DNA of 32,118 nucleotides. Source: Peduovirus P24B2. Positions 11,860 to 31,979 of the stretch are shown piece after piece (positions within the stretch are counted from its first letter, which is position 1; every line of letters begins with the position of its first letter). The position numbers were made by a program, and so were the translations under genes. The notes below the pieces were generated by a model. That model had not been told where the DNA came from, searched no databases, and saw nothing but the letters and a program-made list of their open reading frames with translations. The stretch lies in the sequence record NC_049387.1; one strand, given 5' to 3'.

Positions 11860-14595
11860 ATGAGCACGAAATTTAAAACCGTTATCACTACTGCCGGAGC
11901 CGCAAAGCTGGCAGCCGCCACTGTCCCCGGCGGGAAAAAAGTAAACCTGTCTGCAATGGCCGTGGGTGATGGTAATGGCAAATTGCCGGTGCCGGATGCC
12001 GGTCAGACGAAACTGGTGCATGAGGTCTGGCGTCACGCTCTGAATAAAGTCAGCGTGGATAACAAGAATAAAAACTATATCGTGGCTGAACTGGTTGTAC
12101 CGCCCGAAGTGGGCGGCTTCTGGATGCGTGAGCTTGGTCTGTATGACGATGCCGGAACACTGATTGCGGTATCCAACATGGCAGAAAGCTATAAACCAGA
12201 ACTGGCTGAAGGCTCCGGACGTGCGCAGACCTGCCGCATGGTTATTATTCTCAGCAATGTGGCATCCGTTGAGCTGAGTATTGATGCCAGCACAGTGATG
12301 GCGACGCAGGATTACGTCGATGACAAAATCGCAGAGCATGAGCAGTCCCGCCGCCATCCTGACGCCACGCTGACAGAAAAAGGTTTTACTCAGTTAAGCA
12401 GTGCAACAAACAGCACCAGTGAAGAGCTGGCGGCAACGCCAAAAGCGGTCAAGGCAGCAAATGACAACGCAAATTCACGTCTGGCGAAAAATCAGAACGG
12501 TGCAGATATCCAGGATAAATCAGCTTTTCTGGACAATATTGGTGTTACCAGCCTGACGTTTATGAAAAACAACGGCGAAATGCCGGTTGATGCTGATCTC
12601 AATACATTTGGTCCAGTTAAGGCTTATGTGGGTGTCTGGTATAAATCCACATCCTCCAACGCAACACTGGAGAAAAATTTCCCTGAAGACGGTGCAGTCG
12701 GTGTTCTTGAGGTATTCAATGGCGGTAATTTTTCCGGAATGCAGCGTTATACCACCAGAACTGGCAATGTTTATATGCGTAATCTTTCTGGCACCTGGAA
12801 TGGCTCAGACGGTCCGTGGAGCTACTGGCGTCAGATTCAGTCTGCAACACGCCCCCTGAGCACAACTATTGACCTGAACACGCTAGGAGGCGCAGAGCAT
12901 CTTGGTTTATGGCGAAACAGTAGTGGCTCTATCGCTTCATTTGACCGCAACTATCCGGAAGAAGGAAGTTATGGTCAGGGATTCCTTGAAGTTCTTGAGG
13001 GTGGTGGGTACTCACGCACGCAACGCTATACGACCCGCCGTGGGAACGTATATGTTCGCTGCCTTTCTGCTACATGGAATGCACAGAACCCACAGTGGGA
13101 GCCGTGGTCAAGAGTAGGCCATCAGTCAGAATGTCGTTATTACGAAGGTGATTTGAATGATCTGACTTCGCCAGGCATTTACAGCGTTACAGGGAAGGCG
13201 TCAAACGGTCCAATGCAGGATACCGCTGGAGCGACACTGCTTGGAATACTGGAAGTAATCAGGCGTTTTGATGGTGTATCTGTCTGGCAGCGTTACACAA
13301 CCACAGGGAAATCAGAAACCACACAGGGGCGCACTTTTGAGCGCGTCTATGCCGGGAGCAAATGGACCGAATGGCGAGAAGTATATAACTCCTTTTCGTT
13401 GCCTCTGAATCTGGGCATCGGTGGCGCAGTGGCAAAACTATCCAGTCTGGACTGGCAGAGCTACGATTTTGTGCCGGGCAGTCTGATAGCCGTTAGGCTG
13501 GATAATATGACCAATATTCCCGACGGTATGGACTGGGGCGTCATTGATGGCAACCTGATAAACATCGCAGTTGGTCCGAGTGATGATTCCGGTACGGGGC
13601 GCTCAATGCATGTATGGCGCAGCACTGTAAGTAAAGCGAACTACCGATTTTTTATGGTGCGTATTTCAGGAAATCCGGGAAGCCGCACGATCACAGCAAG
13701 ACGAGTACCAATCATTGACGAAGCCCAGACATGGGGCGCGAAACAGACATTCAGTGCTGGCCTTTCTGGTGAACTGTCCGGCAATGCGGCGACAGCAACA
13801 AAGCTGAAAACAGCCCGTAAAATTAATAACGTTTCGTTTGATGGAACATCAGATATTAACCTGACGCCGAAAAATATTGGTGCATTTGCTTCAGGAAAAA
13901 CAGGAGACACCGTTGCGAATGATAAAGCCGTTGGGTGGAACTGGAGTAGCGGAGCCTATAACGCAACTACTGGTGGGGCATCAACGTTAATTCTTCATTT
14001 TAATATCGGTGAAGGAAGTTGTCCCGCCGCCCAGTTCCGCGTTAATTATAAGAACGGCGGTATTTTTTATCGTTCTGCTCGTGACGGTTACGGATTCGAG
14101 GCTGACTGGTCTGAGTTTTATACCACAACGCGAAAACCTACAGCGGGAGATGTCGGTGCACTGCCGTTATCTGGTGGTCAATTGAATGGTGCTCTGGGTA
14201 TAGGAACATCCAGTGCTCTTGGCGGTAATTCGATTGTTTTGGGTGATAATGACACGGGCTTTAAACAAAATGGTGATGGTAATCTGGATGTTTATGCTAA
14301 TAGCGTCCATATTATGCGCTTTGTCTCGGGAAGTATTCAAAGTAATAAAACCATAAATATTACGGGGCGTGTTAATCCCTCGGATTACGGTAACTTTGAT
14401 TCCCGCTATGTGAGAGATGTCAGACTTGGCACACGTGTTGTTCAGACCATGCAAAAAGGCGTGATGTATGAAAAATCAGGCCATGTAATCACGGGGCTTG
14501 GTATTGTCGGTGAAGTCGATGGTGATGACCCCGCAGTATTCAGACCAATACAAAAATACATCAATGGCACATGGTATAACGTTGCGCAGGTGTAA
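11860..14595 (+). CDS. H: tail fiber protein (mosaic, extended)
   Basis: 911-aa ORF, longer than the 669 aa I recall for P2 gpH; N-terminus is the virion-attachment region expected for P2 H; central and C-terminal parts are lower GC and contain three tandem repeats plus the motif ATATKLKTARKINNVSFDGTSDINLTPKNIGAF that I associate with conserved tail-fibre segments. Confidence 0.85.
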   Translation: MSTKFKTVITTAGAAKLAAATVPGGKKVNLSAMAVGDGNGKLPVPDAGQTKLVHEVWRHALNKVSVDNKNKNYIVAELVVPPEVGGFWMRELGLYDDAGTLIAVSNMAESYKPELAEGSGRAQTCRMVIILSNVASVELSIDASTVMATQDYVDDKIAEHEQSRRHPDATLTEKGFTQLSSATNSTSEELAATPKAVKAANDNANSRLAKNQNGADIQDKSAFLDNIGVTSLTFMKNNGEMPVDADLNTFGPVKAYVGVWYKSTSSNATLEKNFPEDGAVGVLEVFNGGNFSGMQRYTTRTGNVYMRNLSGTWNGSDGPWSYWRQIQSATRPLSTTIDLNTLGGAEHLGLWRNSSGSIASFDRNYPEEGSYGQGFLEVLEGGGYSRTQRYTTRRGNVYVRCLSATWNAQNPQWEPWSRVGHQSECRYYEGDLNDLTSPGIYSVTGKASNGPMQDTAGATLLGILEVIRRFDGVSVWQRYTTTGKSETTQGRTFERVYAGSKWTEWREVYNSFSLPLNLGIGGAVAKLSSLDWQSYDFVPGSLIAVRLDNMTNIPDGMDWGVIDGNLINIAVGPSDDSGTGRSMHVWRSTVSKANYRFFMVRISGNPGSRTITARRVPIIDEAQTWGAKQTFSAGLSGELSGNAATATKLKTARKINNVSFDGTSDINLTPKNIGAFASGKTGDTVANDKAVGWNWSSGAYNATTGGASTLILHFNIGEGSCPAAQFRVNYKNGGIFYRSARDGYGFEADWSEFYTTTRKPTAGDVGALPLSGGQLNGALGIGTSSALGGNSIVLGDNDTGFKQNGDGNLDVYANSVHIMRFVSGSIQSNKTINITGRVNPSDYGNFDSRYVRDVRLGTRVVQTMQKGVMYEKSGHVITGLGIVGEVDGDDPAVFRPIQKYINGTWYNVAQV
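12589..13390 (+). repeat. three tandem ~93-aa (~280-nt) protein repeats inside tail fiber H
   Basis: Repeat units start near 12589, 12865 and 13147; each has DLN(T/D)... then G-x-LEV... then QRYTT(R/T)... then W-x-x-W (compare GVLEVFNGGNFSGMQRYTTRTGNVYMRNLSGTW, GFLEVLEGGGYSRTQRYTTRRGNVYVRCLSATW, GILEVIRRFDGVSVWQRYTTTGKSE). Confidence 0.65.
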
Positions 14596-14598
14596 ATT

Positions 14599-15126
14599 AT
14601 GCAGCATTTAAAAAACATTAAGTCAGGTAATCCAAAAACAAAAGAACAATATCAGCTAACAAAGAATTTTGATGTTATCTGGTTATGGTCCGAAGACGGA
14701 AAAAACTGGTATGAGGAAGTAAGTAATTTTCAGCCAGACACAATAAAAATTGTTTACGACGAGAATAATATTATTGTCGCCATCACCAGAGATGCTTCAA
14801 CGCTTCATCCTGAAGGTTTTAGCGTTGTCGAGGTTCCTGATATTACCGCTAACCGACGTGCTGATGACTCAGGTAAATGGATGTTTAAGGATGGTGCCGT
14901 GATTAAGCGGATTTATACGGCAGACGAACAGCAGCAACTGGCAGAATCACAAAAGGCAACTTTACTTTCCGAAGCTGAATCCGTGATTTTGCCGCTGGAG
15001 CGCGCGGTCAGACTGAACATGGCAACAGATGAGGAGCGTAGCCGACTGGATGCATGGGAGCGTTACAGCGTTCTGGTCAGTCGTGTGGATCCTGCAAATC
15101 CTGAATGGCCGGAAATGCCGCAATAA
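14599..15126 (+). CDS. G: tail fiber assembly chaperone
   Basis: 175-aa ORF immediately downstream of H; position and size as P2 gpG; lower GC like the H distal part, consistent with co-transfer of fibre tip and its chaperone. Confidence 0.75.
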
Positions 15127-15347
15127 GTTGTATGATCTCTGGAGTGAGCAAACGTATCTATGGCACAGAGTAAAGCCTAATCTGACAGGCCGCTCTGTGT
15201 CTGGAGTAGATTTTAGTAAAGCATTATTTTATTAGTGCAAATTCTAATCAATACATTTTATGTATATGATATCCTGCAGACTTTAATGACTTGGTTTAGG
15301 CTAACCAGATAACACTGAAGGAATATTTTTGATAATTAAGGTGCGGT

Positions 15348-15941
15348 ATGTTTACTAAGCGACGATTAAAAAATATTAACTGGGAGGCAAGTTCAGTGAT
15401 TCTTGCTATGGTTCTCTTTGTTGGAAATATATTTTATACAAATCATCGTGATGATATAAGCATGGAGGCTGAGAGGGACAGTATCAGAACAATGTTTGCA
15501 TATGAAATCGCTAATAACCATCGCGCTCTCACTTTTCTTGATAAAACGAGATATATTGGCTTTGACGAAAATTCGGAGCATTTTGTTGGCGAGCCTTTTG
15601 CCATTAATGTCAAATCATTAGGGGGGCCTCGCTTACAGATTGCATTAAACCAGAGTGATAAAGTGTTTAAATCCTACTTCAGCGAATTAAGTAAGCTTGA
15701 TAAAGAGGATGTTACTCTTCTTATGGACTATTACCATGAGCAAAGCATCCTGCTGGAGCGTGTAAAATCTACGTTACAGAAGATGAAAAGTGGTAATGAT
15801 ATTAAAGTTGATATTGATGGTTACTTATTAGAAGAACACTTCATGAATGAGCTTAATCTTTCTAATATTTTGCTTAAACGCTATAGCCATTTGTTGTCAC
15901 AACACGCCAAAGAACATAAAACAAAAGATTTACATAATTGA
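15348..15941 (+). CDS. hypothetical membrane-anchored protein (moron at the Z/fun position)
   Basis: 197-aa ORF with SD-like AAGGTG 5 nt upstream of ATG; single N-terminal hydrophobic helix (SSVILAMVLFVGNIFY); strongly AT-rich compared with the flanking G and FI genes; no catalytic motif recognised. Confidence 0.6.
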   Translation: MFTKRRLKNINWEASSVILAMVLFVGNIFYTNHRDDISMEAERDSIRTMFAYEIANNHRALTFLDKTRYIGFDENSEHFVGEPFAINVKSLGGPRLQIALNQSDKVFKSYFSELSKLDKEDVTLLMDYYHEQSILLERVKSTLQKMKSGNDIKVDIDGYLLEEHFMNELNLSNILLKRYSHLLSQHAKEHKTKDLHN

Positions 15942-16147
15942 TAATCTGCTAATGGTTATTCATGGGGTAACTATGTTTTATATGTAATCCAACTCAGATG
16001 AATTATTGATTCTGGATAATAACCGCAGAGCGGCATATACCCTGACAGGCAAATGTCCGCTTCTTGTTCAAAGCAGACCGTCAGATTTGATAACTTTTGG
16101 GCTATGTAAATTGTCAGTCGGAAAATGAGTGAGTTCAAATCAGGACA

Positions 16148-16174
16148 GGCGGGCGAATTGCCCGCCTTTTCTTT
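16148..16174 (+). terminator. rho-independent terminator upstream of FI
   Basis: Perfect stem ggcgggc(16148-16154)/gcccgcc(16160-16166) with 5-nt loop gaatt, followed by TTTTCTTT. Confidence 0.6.
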
Positions 16175-16270
16175 ATCTGTTGTTTCATCCACTGACCAGC
16201 CAGGTCAAATAGCGTCTCATGCTCTGCACAACAGAAAATAGTTGCACCCATTAACCACGGAGTTAAACGG

Positions 16271-17461
16271 ATGAGTGACTATCATCACGGCGTGCAGGTG
16301 CTGGAGATTAACGACGGCACCCGCGTCATTTCCACCGTATCCACCGCCATTGTTGGCATGGTCTGCACGGCCAGCGATGCGGATGCGGAAACCTTCCCCG
16401 TCAATAAACCGGTGCTGATCACCAATGTGCAGAGCGCGATTGCAAAGGCCGGTAAAAAAGGCACGCTGGCGGCATCGTTGCAGGCCATCGCTGACCAGTC
16501 AAAACCGGTCACCGTTGTCGTGCGCGTGGAAGACGGCACCGGCGACGACGAAGAAACGAAACTCGCGCAGACCGTTTCCAATATCATCGGCACCACTGAC
16601 GAAAACGGTCAGTACACCGGACTGAAAGCCCTGATGGGCGCAGAGTCGGTTACCGGCGTTAAACCGCGCATTCTCGGCGTACCGGGACTGGACACCAAAG
16701 AGGTGGCGGTTGCACTGGCATCGGTATGCCAGGAACTGAATGCCTTCGGGTATATCAGCGCATGGGGCTGTAAAACCATTTCCGAGGCAAAAGCCTACCG
16801 TCAGAATTTCAGTCAGCGTGAGCTGATGGTCATCTGGCCGGATTTCCTTGCATGGGATACGGTCACCAGTACCACCGCCACCGCGTATGCCACCGCCCGT
16901 GCGCTGGGGCTGCGTGCCAAAATCGACCAGGAGCAGGGCTGGCATAAAACGCTGTCCAACGTCGGGGTAAACGGTGTTACCGGCATCAGCGCATCTGTAT
17001 TCTGGGATTTGCAGAAGTCTGGCACTGATGCTGACCTGCTGAACGAGGCAGGCGTCACAACGCTGGTTCGCCGCGACGGTTTCCGTTTCTGGGGTAACCG
17101 TACCTGCTCCGATGACCCACTTTTCCTCTTTGAAAGCTACACACGTACCGCGCAGGTACTGGCCGACACGATGGCTGAGGCGCACATGTGGGCTATTGAT
17201 AAGCCCATCACCGCAACGCTGATTCGCGACATCATTGATGGCATCAATGCCAAATTCCGCGAACTGAAAAACAACGGTTATATCGTGGATGGCACATGCT
17301 GGTTCAGTGAAGAAGCCAACGATGCGGAAACCCTCAAGGCCGGAAAACTGTATATCGACTACGACTATACACCGGTGCCTCCTCTCGAAAACCTGACCCT
17401 ACGCCAGCGTATTACTTCAAGATACCTGGCAAGTCTGGTCACCTCGGTTAACAGCAATTAA
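16271..17461 (+). CDS. FI: tail sheath protein
   Basis: 396-aa ORF; P2 gpFI size and N-terminus MSDYHHGVQVLEINDGTRVI. Confidence 0.92.
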   Translation: MSDYHHGVQVLEINDGTRVISTVSTAIVGMVCTASDADAETFPVNKPVLITNVQSAIAKAGKKGTLAASLQAIADQSKPVTVVVRVEDGTGDDEETKLAQTVSNIIGTTDENGQYTGLKALMGAESVTGVKPRILGVPGLDTKEVAVALASVCQELNAFGYISAWGCKTISEAKAYRQNFSQRELMVIWPDFLAWDTVTSTTATAYATARALGLRAKIDQEQGWHKTLSNVGVNGVTGISASVFWDLQKSGTDADLLNEAGVTTLVRRDGFRFWGNRTCSDDPLFLFESYTRTAQVLADTMAEAHMWAIDKPITATLIRDIIDGINAKFRELKNNGYIVDGTCWFSEEANDAETLKAGKLYIDYDYTPVPPLENLTLRQRITSRYLASLVTSVNSN

Positions 17462-29077: not shown

Positions 29078-30125
29078 ATGGCGGTAAAAGTTGTTGATCT
29101 TTTTTGCGGTGCTGGCGGTTTAACGCACGGCTTACATTTGGCCGGATTGGACGTTGTCGCAGGCATTGATTTAGAAGGTGAGTGTCGTGTTGCATACGAA
29201 AGCAATAATGATGCACTTTTTATTGAAAAAGATATATCTCTGGTGACAAAAGATGAAATCGAAAATCTTTTTGAAGGGGCAAGTGTTAAAGTATTGGCCG
29301 GATGTGCACCTTGTCAGCCATTTTCTAAATATACTCAGGGAAAAGATAAAAAAAATGATAAAAAGTGGCCGTTATTATATGAGTTTGAACGTTTAATAAA
29401 AGACACGAAACCAGAAATAGTTACAATGGAAAACGTTCCTGATGTGACAAAACATTCTGTCTATGATGATTTTTATAATACCTTAATAGCATTGGGTTAT
29501 TATGTTTGGGCAAATAAGATTGAATGTGTAGATTTTGAGGTTCCGCAAAACAGAGTGAGGCATGTATTACTCGCATCTAAATTTGCGCCGATTTCTCTGA
29601 TGAAACCACAAACATCGGTAAAGCTGACAGTTAGGGATTGCATTGGTAATTTACCTTCGATTGAAGCGGGACAAGCAGATCCAAAAGACCCTCTCCATAA
29701 GGCGAGTAGATTGAGTGAAATTAATCTCAAACGTATTCTACATTCAAAACCGGGGGGGGACATGGAGGGATTGGCCTGCTGAATTAATCGCTTCATGTCA
29801 TGCCAAGAAAAGTGGGCAGGGATATGCCAGTGTTTATGGTCGTATGTCTTGGGATAAACCGAGTCCAACGATAACTACACTTTGTTATGGTTTTGGTAAT
29901 GGACGTTTTGGTCATCCCGAGCAGCATCGTGCAATCTCACTTAGGGAAGCAGCATTACTTCAAACGTTTCCTGTTACATATTCATTTACCCAACCGGGCG
30001 AGCCGATCAAAATGAAAAATGTCGGGCGTATGATAGGTAATGCTGTTCCTGTAAACTTAGGTAAAGCGATTGGTCTTTCAATAGTACATCATTTGAAAGA
30101 GTTTCACCCCGCCGCTCTTAAATAA
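29078..30125 (+). pseudogene. DNA (cytosine-5) methyltransferase, Dcm-like, split by a frameshift in a G8 tract
   Basis: ORF 29078..29782 carries motif I (FCGAGG), motif IV (GCAPCQPFS), motif VI (ENV) and motif VIII (QNRVRH); ORF 29715..30125, in another frame, carries RMSWDKPSPTIT and motif X (GNAVPV); the frames meet at GGGGGGGG 29752-29759; SD GGAG upstream of the ATG; AT-rich. Confidence 0.8.
29752..29759 (+). repeat. homopolymeric G8 tract at the methyltransferase frameshift site
   Basis: cgggggggga read directly; loss of one G would fuse the two methyltransferase frames into a product of about 348 aa. Confidence 0.9.
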
Positions 30126-30823
30126 GCCTGAGTATCAAGATAAGTTTGTATATTTTCAAGGATGCAGTTGAGATAATGAAAAACTTCATCCTTCATTTCT
30201 GTTAGTGTATCAATAGATGTATCTCTGCCTTTGTTTCTAAATGATTCAGAACCATGAGCAAGGTCGTTTCTGGCCTTTTTTATTGGAAGTAAATTGCAAC
30301 CATTTCGCGTTATTTCTGAATCTGTATCTGCTGAGAAGCCATATTTTTCAGCGACTTCTCTAATTTTTCTAGCATCAACATTTCCAGAAAATAACGGATT
30401 TTTATTTGATTGGATAAGTTTTTTGTGAGCGTTTAGCCACTCTTTAAATATAACTTTTGCAATGTTCCCTTGTGAGAAATCTATTTTCCCATTTGGTGAT
30501 TGTAAACTATGAAATGCTACTCTTGTAAGGTTTTCATTTACAGTGTCTGCACATAATGATTCATTAGACATTAAAACATTATGAATGTCTTCTATTGCAT
30601 TGGAAATGGTTGCTTCAATGAGATTGTACAATATAATAAATGCATTAGCCTTTAAAATATGAGTCATGTCAATATCAATGGGTTGTTGTATAGGCGCATC
30701 GCTTGTATTCTCTTTATAGACTAGAGATGGTTTTTTGTTTATTAGTAACTGAATGAATGAGAAGTATTCATTAATATCTTGCATTCTTTCTTGGAAAAGA
30801 ATTTTACTTGTCATCTCCTCCAT
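30104..30823 (-). CDS. hypothetical protein, putative HEPN-like nuclease
   Basis: 239-aa ORF 10 bp downstream of the DUF262 gene on the same strand; C-terminal KKARNDLAHGSESF fits the R-x4-H(G) HEPN motif; very AT-rich; 3' end overlaps the methyltransferase 3' end by 22 nt (convergent). Confidence 0.5.
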   Translation of the reverse strand: MEEMTSKILFQERMQDINEYFSFIQLLINKKPSLVYKENTSDAPIQQPIDIDMTHILKANAFIILYNLIEATISNAIEDIHNVLMSNESLCADTVNENLTRVAFHSLQSPNGKIDFSQGNIAKVIFKEWLNAHKKLIQSNKNPLFSGNVDARKIREVAEKYGFSADTDSEITRNGCNLLPIKKARNDLAHGSESFRNKGRDTSIDTLTEMKDEVFHYLNCILENIQTYLDTQAYLRAAG

Positions 30824-30833
30824 TTACTTGGCC

Positions 30834-31979
30834 TCACTCCATATTTTCATCTTCATTTTCATCTTCGTCGACAATATTTTCTGGAATGTCTTTCCCAAGC
30901 AACTTGTTTTTTACATATTCAATGCGTGCTTTAACTTTGGGTTTAGAGTTGCTGGCATCTGAACGTGTGTGCGTGATAAACTCTTTCGAGTTGATCCAGT
31001 CATCAATATTTTTAGGAACTAAATTGGGTTCTTCCTCTAGTGCTAATGTTGCACCGACGGCAAGAGCTTCGAAACGAATCCTAGGAACAGTGGTGGCGTT
31101 TTTCACCTTTCTGAAACCATTTGGGAAATGTGTATTAATGAATTGGCACATTTTATGAAATTTTTCCGCCAGCATAGCTGCGTTTTCATCTGTATATTCG
31201 GCATTTTTACGTTTTAAATAGGTTGTAAGAAATTCATCAACGCTTTTTCTGAAATCAAGATATTCTTCAGTGTAGGCAAAGTAGCGTAGTGCCAATTCTG
31301 GATATTCAGAGCGACGTTTTCTTGCATCTCCCAAAGGACAGATGCTATGAAATAGAGGATCTTCGGAAATTTCATTGATAAATGCAAGGAATGGCCCATC
31401 ATGGCTACCTTGCCGTTGTTCCATTGTTGTTAGTTTTTTTCCGCCAGTATTCAGACGGTCAAAAATTTCCCTTCTTGTCTCTTCGTCACAATGTTCTGTA
31501 AGTTCAATCATTCGAATAGTTTTTCTATCAAAACGTAGGCGACGGGGAGTACTGAAATCAGAATATTTAAAACCATTGGCTGTGACTAATTTCTGCAGGC
31601 CTTCAAGAGTTAGTTTGTTATTGGTAAATTGGTGTAGGGTTCTTATTCGTTGGCTACCGTCAACAATTTCAAGTCTACCTTCATTTTCACCTGAACCAAT
31701 ATCGGCAACGAATATGTAAGGTATAGGAAGATTTAAAAGCAGAGATTCAATGAAACGGGATTTTTGCTTGTTGTTCCAGATAAACTCCCTTTGGTAGTCA
31801 GGTATAAAAAGCTCTGCCTCATCTTCTTCAAGACCATTCTGAAATTTGTCCACAATAACACTTATCGGGAACTCACGTATTTCATGGTCAGTGATTTTTT
31901 GCATTTCAACTATGCTTTGATCTAAAAGCTCCTTTTCTTCTTTAGTTTTTGGGGTATGTTCTGCTTTTTTTCTCGCCAT
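30834..31979 (-). CDS. DUF262 (ParB/sulfiredoxin-like, GmrSD N-terminal-type) domain protein
   Basis: 381-aa ORF with IPDYQREFIW and EIVDGSQRIRTL, matching the DUF262 hallmarks ([IL]PxFQRxYxW and DGQQR); no HNH/DUF1524-like C-terminal motif seen; acidic C-terminal tail DEDENEDENME; SD AGGA upstream; AT-rich. Confidence 0.7.
   Translation of the reverse strand: MARKKAEHTPKTKEEKELLDQSIVEMQKITDHEIREFPISVIVDKFQNGLEEDEAELFIPDYQREFIWNNKQKSRFIESLLLNLPIPYIFVADIGSGENEGRLEIVDGSQRIRTLHQFTNNKLTLEGLQKLVTANGFKYSDFSTPRRLRFDRKTIRMIELTEHCDEETRREIFDRLNTGGKKLTTMEQRQGSHDGPFLAFINEISEDPLFHSICPLGDARKRRSEYPELALRYFAYTEEYLDFRKSVDEFLTTYLKRKNAEYTDENAAMLAEKFHKMCQFINTHFPNGFRKVKNATTVPRIRFEALAVGATLALEEEPNLVPKNIDDWINSKEFITHTRSDASNSKPKVKARIEYVKNKLLGKDIPENIVDEDENEDENME

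Follow-up and report, generated by a model that had tools for sequence, protein, structure and literature searches.

Between the tail-fibre assembly gene G and the tail sheath gene FI of Peduovirus P24B2 (NC_049387.1) lies a mobile one-gene cassette that encodes a membrane protein of an orphan family. The window analyzed here is a stretch of 32,118 nucleotides and is as a whole a complete P2-like genome. The protein is predicted to cross the inner membrane once and to place an all-helical domain in the periplasm. We tentatively propose that it is an envelope-level exclusion factor of the lysogen with a narrow target range, a role that we rate as a real possibility somewhat short of probable. 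The features of the locus and the contexts of its relatives are collected in Table 1.

The G-FI interval contains one sizeable open reading frame (ORF). An initial annotation, made from the sequence alone, had singled it out as the one well-supported ORF of a strikingly AT-rich interval. The ORF scan and codon-level selection confirm the gene, and the GC content confirms the composition (0.32-0.38 across 15100-16150 vs 0.50-0.59 on both sides; the cargo itself has 0.32-0.37 and the backbone ~0.55). The annotation of P2 supports the placement of this interval at the P2 Z/fun position. Here, the cargo stands in place of ~2.1 kb of P2 that holds the annotated V-operon terminator and fun(Z).

The limits of the insert were found by two comparisons. 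An unrelated Pantoea island (L014) is homologous to the window at the nucleotide level from ~15240 to ~16084, nearly the same limits as those set by the loss and return of P2 homology. The insert is therefore a single mobile cassette of ~0.86 kb, in which the gene is flanked by ~110 bp on its 5′ side and by ~120-140 bp on its 3′ side. As is characteristic of a moron, it is present or absent among otherwise collinear genomes and deviates from them in base composition.

Codon-level comparison across seven lineages and pairwise ratios of nonsynonymous to synonymous substitution (dN/dS) were used to analyze the start codon and selection. Pairwise dN/dS over the whole gene is 0.10-0.14, with synonymous sites near saturation, and by this comparison the ORF is a protein-coding gene under strong purifying selection. 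The lowest values in the gene (0.06-0.09) occur in codons 10-32, which include the transmembrane helix. By this measure, the membrane helix is more than a passive anchor.

The P2-like isolates SIDE7 (OU784746, L017) and AC1 (OV192280, L018) both carry the cassette, with the gene annotated at 1770-2315 in each record. In both, the annotated start is an internal GTG preceded by GGGAGG, giving a 181 amino acid protein without the basic N-terminal stretch and with only half of the transmembrane helix. We rejected this start, as it is the upstream start codon that all lineages compared retain. The internal GTG reads GTA, GTC, or GTT outside E. coli, and GGGAGG is broken by a synonymous GAG>GAA change in four of the six other lineages compared. 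Judged by these codons, the 181 amino acid annotations are wrong. Shortened versions of 99 amino acids are annotated on 40 E. coli contigs (members P0077 and P0079 of the P0001 cluster), which suggests gene decay in some lineages.

The protein contains one hydrophobic segment at residues ~12-32, modeled as a helix by AlphaFold2 (AF2), in agreement with the single N-terminal transmembrane helix described initially. Its hydropathy is borderline (19-residue Kyte-Doolittle maximum of 1.54; 1.6-2.3 in relatives), and throughout the family there is only one such helix. AF2 gave an unusable model from a shallow alignment (predicted local distance difference test score, pLDDT, of 53). A deeper alignment to which distant members were added (A4) raised the pLDDT to 83.8, with a predicted template modeling score (pTM) of 0.72. 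In this model a continuous helix, residues 12-66, leads from the membrane into a stalk, a loop at 67-91 is less confident, and the stalk packs against helices 92-100, 105-116, 119-148, and 151-178. Within the domain, R47, N57, and L117 are invariant family-wide, and A51, E53, I54, Y110, Y128, Y129, and F165 are near-invariant.

We predict a type-II topology, with the N-terminus inside and the C-terminus outside (N-in/C-out), from the positive-inside rule: across 31 family members the N-terminus has a net charge of +1 to +7, and an acidic or neutral flank follows the helix. Structure and topology prediction, which the initial annotation had proposed as checks, together describe an N-in single-pass protein with a periplasmic bundle. 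The soluble, largely helical domain described at first is all-helical in the AF2 model; it is predicted to be periplasmic rather than cytoplasmic. The distant relatives P0045, P0050, and P0054 contain a C-terminal C-x4-C pair within an acidic tail, and the window protein has no cysteine. Such a pair could form a disulfide in the periplasm, which would be in keeping with the outward topology.

Foldseek searches against the PDB and BFVD returned no significant neighbor for the model; the best matches are generic four-helix bundles (E >= 0.07, TM-score <= 0.5). These non-significant neighbors include the periplasmic domains of Tsr/Tar, OspC, and designed bundles.

The protein matches the hidden Markov model (HMM) of phrog_3829 over residues 1-197 of 197 (E 5.7e-137), and this PHROG is labeled "unknown function". 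Single-sequence searches of Pfam, NCBIfam, PADLOC, and the PDB gave no family or sequence match, consistent with the early remark that no motif could be assigned. A profile search of the PDB and a member-by-member Pfam scan of 32 family members were also empty. Against PADLOC-DB v2 there were 0 matches at E<=10 for the window protein and scattered single-member chance matches among the 32 members. These searches assigned no structural or housekeeping family, an outcome that the initial annotation had named as an argument against its reading.

Recent annotations from the Prokaryotic Genome Annotation Pipeline (PGAP) name the protein "lysogenic conversion protein", and we found no HMM and no publication behind the name. 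The family is thus already catalogued, yet it has no assigned function, and no relative with a known function was detected. Among 1.84 billion representative proteins, an exhaustive profile search recovered 29 clusters, the complete ones 165-218 amino acids long. In the full-length members examined, a basic N-terminus is followed by one hydrophobic helix with the motif NWEAxSVxxAMxLF and then by a helical domain. The named family members come only from Enterobacterales genera.

The full cassette is found in 201 of 5,426 complete E. coli genomes, chromosomal every time, and in 11 deposited P2-like phage records. In all, 1,018 E. coli genomes match the conserved portion of the interval, ~800 of them, beyond the 201, in that portion only. 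Of the 30 IMG/VR loci with the gene, 29 have it in this same G-X-FI slot, at an unvarying spacing of 225 and 333 nt. Across these loci the neighboring G protein is 75-95% identical, beside a cassette that is 94-99% identical. The same H/G module is also seen with other cargo, and AC1 pairs the cassette with a different H. We considered the gene as a receptor-masking partner tied to the type of tail fibre and rejected this; cargo and H/G module vary separately, and the gene is therefore not a fibre accessory.

Outside E. coli, the gene is solitary in every case and is always found in accessory DNA. Next to the Proteus mirabilis relative are genes for a 471 amino acid multi-pass protein with a putAbiC domain and a 510 amino acid HD/dGTPase-like protein, and this locus (L005) looks like a small uncharacterized defense island. 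One cargo family is common to P2-like helpers and P4-like satellites. According to a 2026 survey, such helpers and satellites almost never swap near-identical defense genes.

The gene is preceded by the Shine-Dalgarno sequence AAGGTG, as first reported. Further upstream, a conserved block with a -10-like TATGAT may be a promoter of its own. In the Pantoea loci L014 and L015 the surrounding genes differ from those of the window, yet this block is retained. The block travels with the gene; no good -35 was found for TATGAT, and the sigma-70 scan did not call it. The promoter that the scan proposed (ATAACA-16-GATAAT, 15309-15336) was rejected as the main promoter because its transcription start would hit the Shine-Dalgarno sequence and because a 46-bp insertion splits it in Pantoea. 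In E. coli EECO1006 (L020 1711-2408), an IS1 element lies ~90 bp upstream of the gene, right after the TATGAT box (equivalent to ~15273 in the window). This element cuts the gene off from the putative promoter and from any late-operon read-through.

Two hairpins of the P2 backbone flank the cargo. The one at the left junction has a stem that is conserved in P2, and the scan does not class it as a canonical terminator; possibly it acts on the V-G late operon as an incomplete terminator and stops some of the late transcript. The hairpin and T-run on the right form the first canonical terminator 3′ of G and of the cargo gene. They are kept in P2 itself, directly upstream of the annotated P_F activator site, and therefore belong to the backbone and lie outside the moron. 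The initial annotation let the AT-rich region end in this terminator. The terminator is real, and the moron ends before it, at ~16056; the terminator used by the gene is that of the backbone. Because no canonical terminator lies between G and this site, the left hairpin aside, late-operon read-through into the cargo gene is plausible.

In the proposed role, the protein would sit in the inner membrane of the lysogen in the N-in/C-out orientation, and its conserved transmembrane helix would continue as a stalk into the periplasmic helical bundle. Helix and bundle would bind a host inner-membrane or periplasmic component needed by incoming genomes, or the ejected proteins of the invader. DNA entry would then be blocked after adsorption and before the cytoplasm is reached, for phage and possibly for other mobile DNA. 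We infer this function, and the step at which it would act, from several lines of evidence. The Z/fun slot is a validated defense hotspot, and the relatives are solitary cargo on many mobile elements, both of which support exclusion. Also in its favor are the purifying selection on the gene, its fixed place in the G-X-FI slot, its independence from the tail-fibre type, and the recognizable defense genes found beside several relatives. The initial annotation had called the slot a known cargo and defense site; published work supports this, as the fun locus is the second defense-enriched hotspot of P2-like phages, with three experimentally validated systems (Vassallo 2022, PMC9519451). None of the three is related to the window protein. 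Action at the entry step is supported by the predicted placement of the domain in the periplasm, and the restriction of named members to Enterobacterales fits dependence on a lineage-specific envelope partner.

A wider version of this proposal is that the family provides a single-protein "DNA-entry gatekeeper" on many mobile elements, excluding both phage injection and the entry of conjugative DNA. The near-invariant helix would dock on a conserved Enterobacterales inner-membrane component and the bundle would intercept the incoming DNA-delivery machinery. We regard this generalization as quite improbable.

Several results weigh against an exclusion factor. In the searches described above, no known exclusion or defense protein showed homology or a significant similarity in fold. 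The scan of the interval found no convincing sigma-70 promoter, so expression in the lysogen is putative. E. coli C lysogens of four P2-like isolates have been challenged with lambda, T4, P1, 186, CLB_P2, LF82_P8, AL505_P2, and T7 (Rousset 2022, PMC9122126). The sole isolate named as protective was AC1, against lambda and LF82_P8, and its protection was reproduced by a cloned TIR system from the other hotspot (PMC9122126). For the AC1 and SIDE7 lysogens, no protection attributable to the gene was reported against these eight phages, in a panel that did not include T5 and a paper that is silent on the gene (PMC9122126), and this counts as indirect negative evidence for that panel; that SIDE7 is non-protective is our inference from this silence. 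The gene is also absent from the 21 systems recovered from 71 E. coli strains by selection with T4, lambda-vir, and T7, where its coverage in the library was not established (PMC9519451). Guilt by association is imperfect at these hotspots, because they also hold non-defense cargo such as toxins, partition systems, and receptor-binding modules. A functional link to the cargo of the other hotspot was rejected, as AC1 has a TIR system there and the window has GmrSD_N and HEPN proteins.

The presence of such cargo at P2 hotspots is one reason to consider that the gene serves a lysogenic conversion unrelated to defense. The protein would alter envelope physiology (stress tolerance, surface polysaccharide processing, or colonization and virulence) and benefit the host independently of phages. 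The PGAP name points the same way, although it has no traceable experimental basis, as does the lack of a phage phenotype attributable to the gene in the published lysogens. Some contexts of the family adjoin Lom/Ail, MFS transporter, or haemolysin-type genes instead of defense genes. We consider this explanation possible if rather unlikely: Pfam and NCBIfam searches gave no similarity to envelope-modifying families, and occurrence in satellites, conjugative elements, and islands beside SIR2/HerA-like, putAbiC, and HD proteins is more typical of conflict genes.

The initial annotation had left the choice between superinfection exclusion and abortive infection open. The genomic niche and the membrane protein stand as described, and the predicted N-in/C-out topology favors exclusion. 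In single-protein abortive infection, the bundle or helix would sense infection and oligomers would depolarize or permeabilize the inner membrane, killing the cell before phage release. The extremely conserved helix, with polar N11, E13, S16, and N27, would suit helix-helix oligomerization, the Proteus relative adjoins a putAbiC-domain protein, and membrane effectors are common among defense systems (Rousset 2022). However, a single helix with a large domain predicted to be extracytoplasmic would have little access to intracellular infection cues, and a sensor partner was never seen beside the gene in the contexts examined. There is no hint of toxicity; intact copies are stably kept in lysogens, though truncated and IS-adjacent copies occur. 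Exclusion is preferred because of the outward-facing domain, the lack of a partner gene, and the narrow taxonomic range, and abortive infection by a cytoplasm-sensing protein appears distinctly unlikely. The orientation of the gene with the late operon, the loss of the annotated V-operon terminator of P2, the position of the first canonical terminator beyond the gene, and the lack of a strong promoter of its own in the scan would also fit an accessory of the lytic cycle. Co-transcribed with the V-G operon, it would act late in infection instead of in the lysogen, for example by tuning lysis or by protecting the infected cell or the progeny. We judge this very unlikely. The cassette is dispensable, being present in 201 of the 1,018 E. 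coli genomes with a match to the conserved portion, and members of the family are also carried by satellites, plasmids, conjugative elements, and non-phage islands, for which a late function of P2 would be senseless. In addition, the Pectobacterium copy is encoded on the strand opposite the tail genes, and the strong left hairpin may already stop part of the late transcript.

The proposed exclusion factor resembles several known proteins in plan or position. P2 Fun(Z) is a lysogenic-conversion gene that excludes T5. Both genes are AT-rich, non-essential cargo in the G-FI slot, but they are not homologous (hhalign of the family profile, probability 0.07%, E 0.7). In the P2 annotation fun(Z) encodes 528 amino acids on the opposite strand, whereas the window gene encodes 197 and is co-directional with the late genes. 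The V-operon terminator of P2 is replaced together with fun(Z) in the window. HK97 gp15 is a superinfection-exclusion membrane protein. Like the window gene, its gene is a dispensable solo moron for a small membrane protein, placed between tail genes in the direction of late transcription. No homology was detected (hhalign probability 0.4%), and gp15 has 62 amino acids and its own annotated terminator, whereas the window protein has a 165 amino acid domain predicted to be extracytoplasmic and uses a backbone terminator.

The injection blockers of the lactococcal Sie2009 type and the T4 Sp/Imm type are anchored in the membrane at the N-terminus, have most of the protein outside the cytoplasm, and are encoded by solitary prophage or phage genes. 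The window protein has the same plan of anchor and outside domain and is encoded by a solitary gene; by description, not by sequence comparison, we liken it to these proteins and propose them as its mechanistic class. It differs in that it matches no PHROG of known exclusion function and the PDB fold search gave generic helical bundles. Tsr/Tar (TarH/4HB_MCP) also have a bundle that is continuous with an N-in transmembrane helix and are the best, non-significant fold neighbors in the PDB (Foldseek E 0.19-0.8, TM-score 0.25-0.47). Unlike these, the window protein has no second transmembrane helix, no signaling domain, and no Pfam TarH/4HB_MCP match. The defense systems of the P2 hotspots (the PD-T4, PD-T7, and PD-lambda series, Old, Tin, PARIS, and others) share its genomic niche, but no PADLOC model matches the 32 family members consistently.

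Table 1. Features of the G-FI interval of Peduovirus P24B2, and contexts of family members outside E. coli
Feature	Location	Strand	Details
Gene G, tail-fibre assembly (left conserved flank)	14599..15126	+	Pfam Caudo_TAP 3.3e-35; 3′ end identical to P2 G
Backbone hairpin at left junction	15157..15205	+	followed by interrupted U tract UAGAUUUUAG; deltaG -24.2 kcal/mol, z -4.0 (RNA fold)
Cargo cassette	~15200..16056	+	P2 homology lost ~15199 and regained ~16057 (alignment with reference P2)
Conserved upstream block, putative own promoter	15242..15275	+	-10-like TATGAT at 15265-15270; common to window and Pantoea loci L014 and L015
Shine-Dalgarno AAGGTG	15338-15343	+	4 nt before ATG; AAGGAG/AAGGTG conserved in relatives
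Coding sequence of orphan family (phrog_3829; PGAP "lysogenic conversion protein")	15348..15941	+	197 amino acids; start codon conserved in all lineages compared
Transmembrane helix, codons 12-32	15381..15443	+	near-invariant motif NWEAxSVxxAMxLFxxN; hydropathy, AF2 helix
Predicted periplasmic all-helical domain, codons 33-197	15444..15938	+	AF2; topology by positive-inside rule
Intrinsic terminator (hairpin and T-run), conserved P2 backbone	16147..16176	+	9-bp GC-rich hairpin; deltaG -20.1 kcal/mol, z -3.9
P_F late-promoter region (activator site to transcription start)	16178..16247, approximate	+	P2 annotation mapped by alignment
Gene FI, tail sheath (right conserved flank)	16271..17461	+	Pfam Phage_sheath_1 5.1e-33
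P4-like satellites, after alpha primase	Pantoea ananatis L010 5402-6001; Kosakonia L004 7001-7591		61-62% identity; between primase and end of element
Salmonella lambdoid prophage end			adjoins C5-methylase and DUF4928
Pectobacterium siphovirus tail module			opposite strand to tail genes
Salmonella conjugative element			between tra genes
Dickeya integrative and conjugative element (ICE) region			beside SIR2 + DUF87 and ArdC
Plasmids			IncFII and ParB/TraM
Pantoea AlpA island			family member
Proteus mirabilis ATCC 29906 island	L005 2712-7591		30%-identical relative; next to ahpCF

Short repeats bracket the cargo (15179-15197 / 16026-16087), and one of them, a 19-nt imperfect inverted repeat, is located in the backbone. 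The sequence CTGACAGGC is found at both cargo junctions and GCCGCTCTG is inverted at the right end. The repeats could serve as short-homology substrates when cargo is swapped. They were rejected as evidence for a recombination site, as their number is near chance expectation and is not significant alone. An Rfam scan gave matches at chance level only.

At the old/tin position, the window contains an AT-rich (GC 0.34-0.38), defense-like pair of genes on the minus strand (30104-31979). One encodes a 381 amino acid GmrSD_N/DUF262 protein (PADLOC NsnA 5.7e-55, PD-T4-2_A 9.6e-35) and the other a 239 amino acid HEPN_MAE_28990 protein. On the plus strand at 29078-30125 is an ORF for a C5 cytosine DNA methylase. 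At only 234 amino acids, its product spans the N-terminal portion, roughly one-half to two-thirds, of the methylase models in Pfam and PADLOC. The rest of the methylase may be encoded by an overlapping ORF (29715-30125), in which case the gene would be frameshifted or split. The tail-fibre gene H (11860-14595) encodes 911 amino acids, and the H of P2 presumably ends at 669. In the 3′ part of H and in gene G the GC content (0.42-0.44) is below that of the backbone, and the H/G module recombines independently of the cargo.

P2-like prophages are found in about one-fifth of sequenced E. coli, and the cassette in ~4% of complete genomes. Candidates of this kind are known to abound at P2 hotspots, and a specialist may not be very surprised by one more. 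What is unusual here is that the membrane helix is the most constrained part of the protein, that the fold is an orphan, and that the family has spread over at least six kinds of mobile element, phages, satellites, and conjugative elements among them. The cassette is a clean one-gene test case of 0.86 kb, small enough for direct testing. Should the protein prove inactive against phages, it would serve as a useful counter-example to guilt by association in defense hotspots. In the proposed role, the protein would found a new family among the prophage single-pass membrane exclusion proteins, an already known class. As an exclusion factor it would represent a new protein family in envelope-level immunity, would identify the host or phage component that is targeted, and would be relevant to the prediction of host range for phage therapy in E. 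coli.

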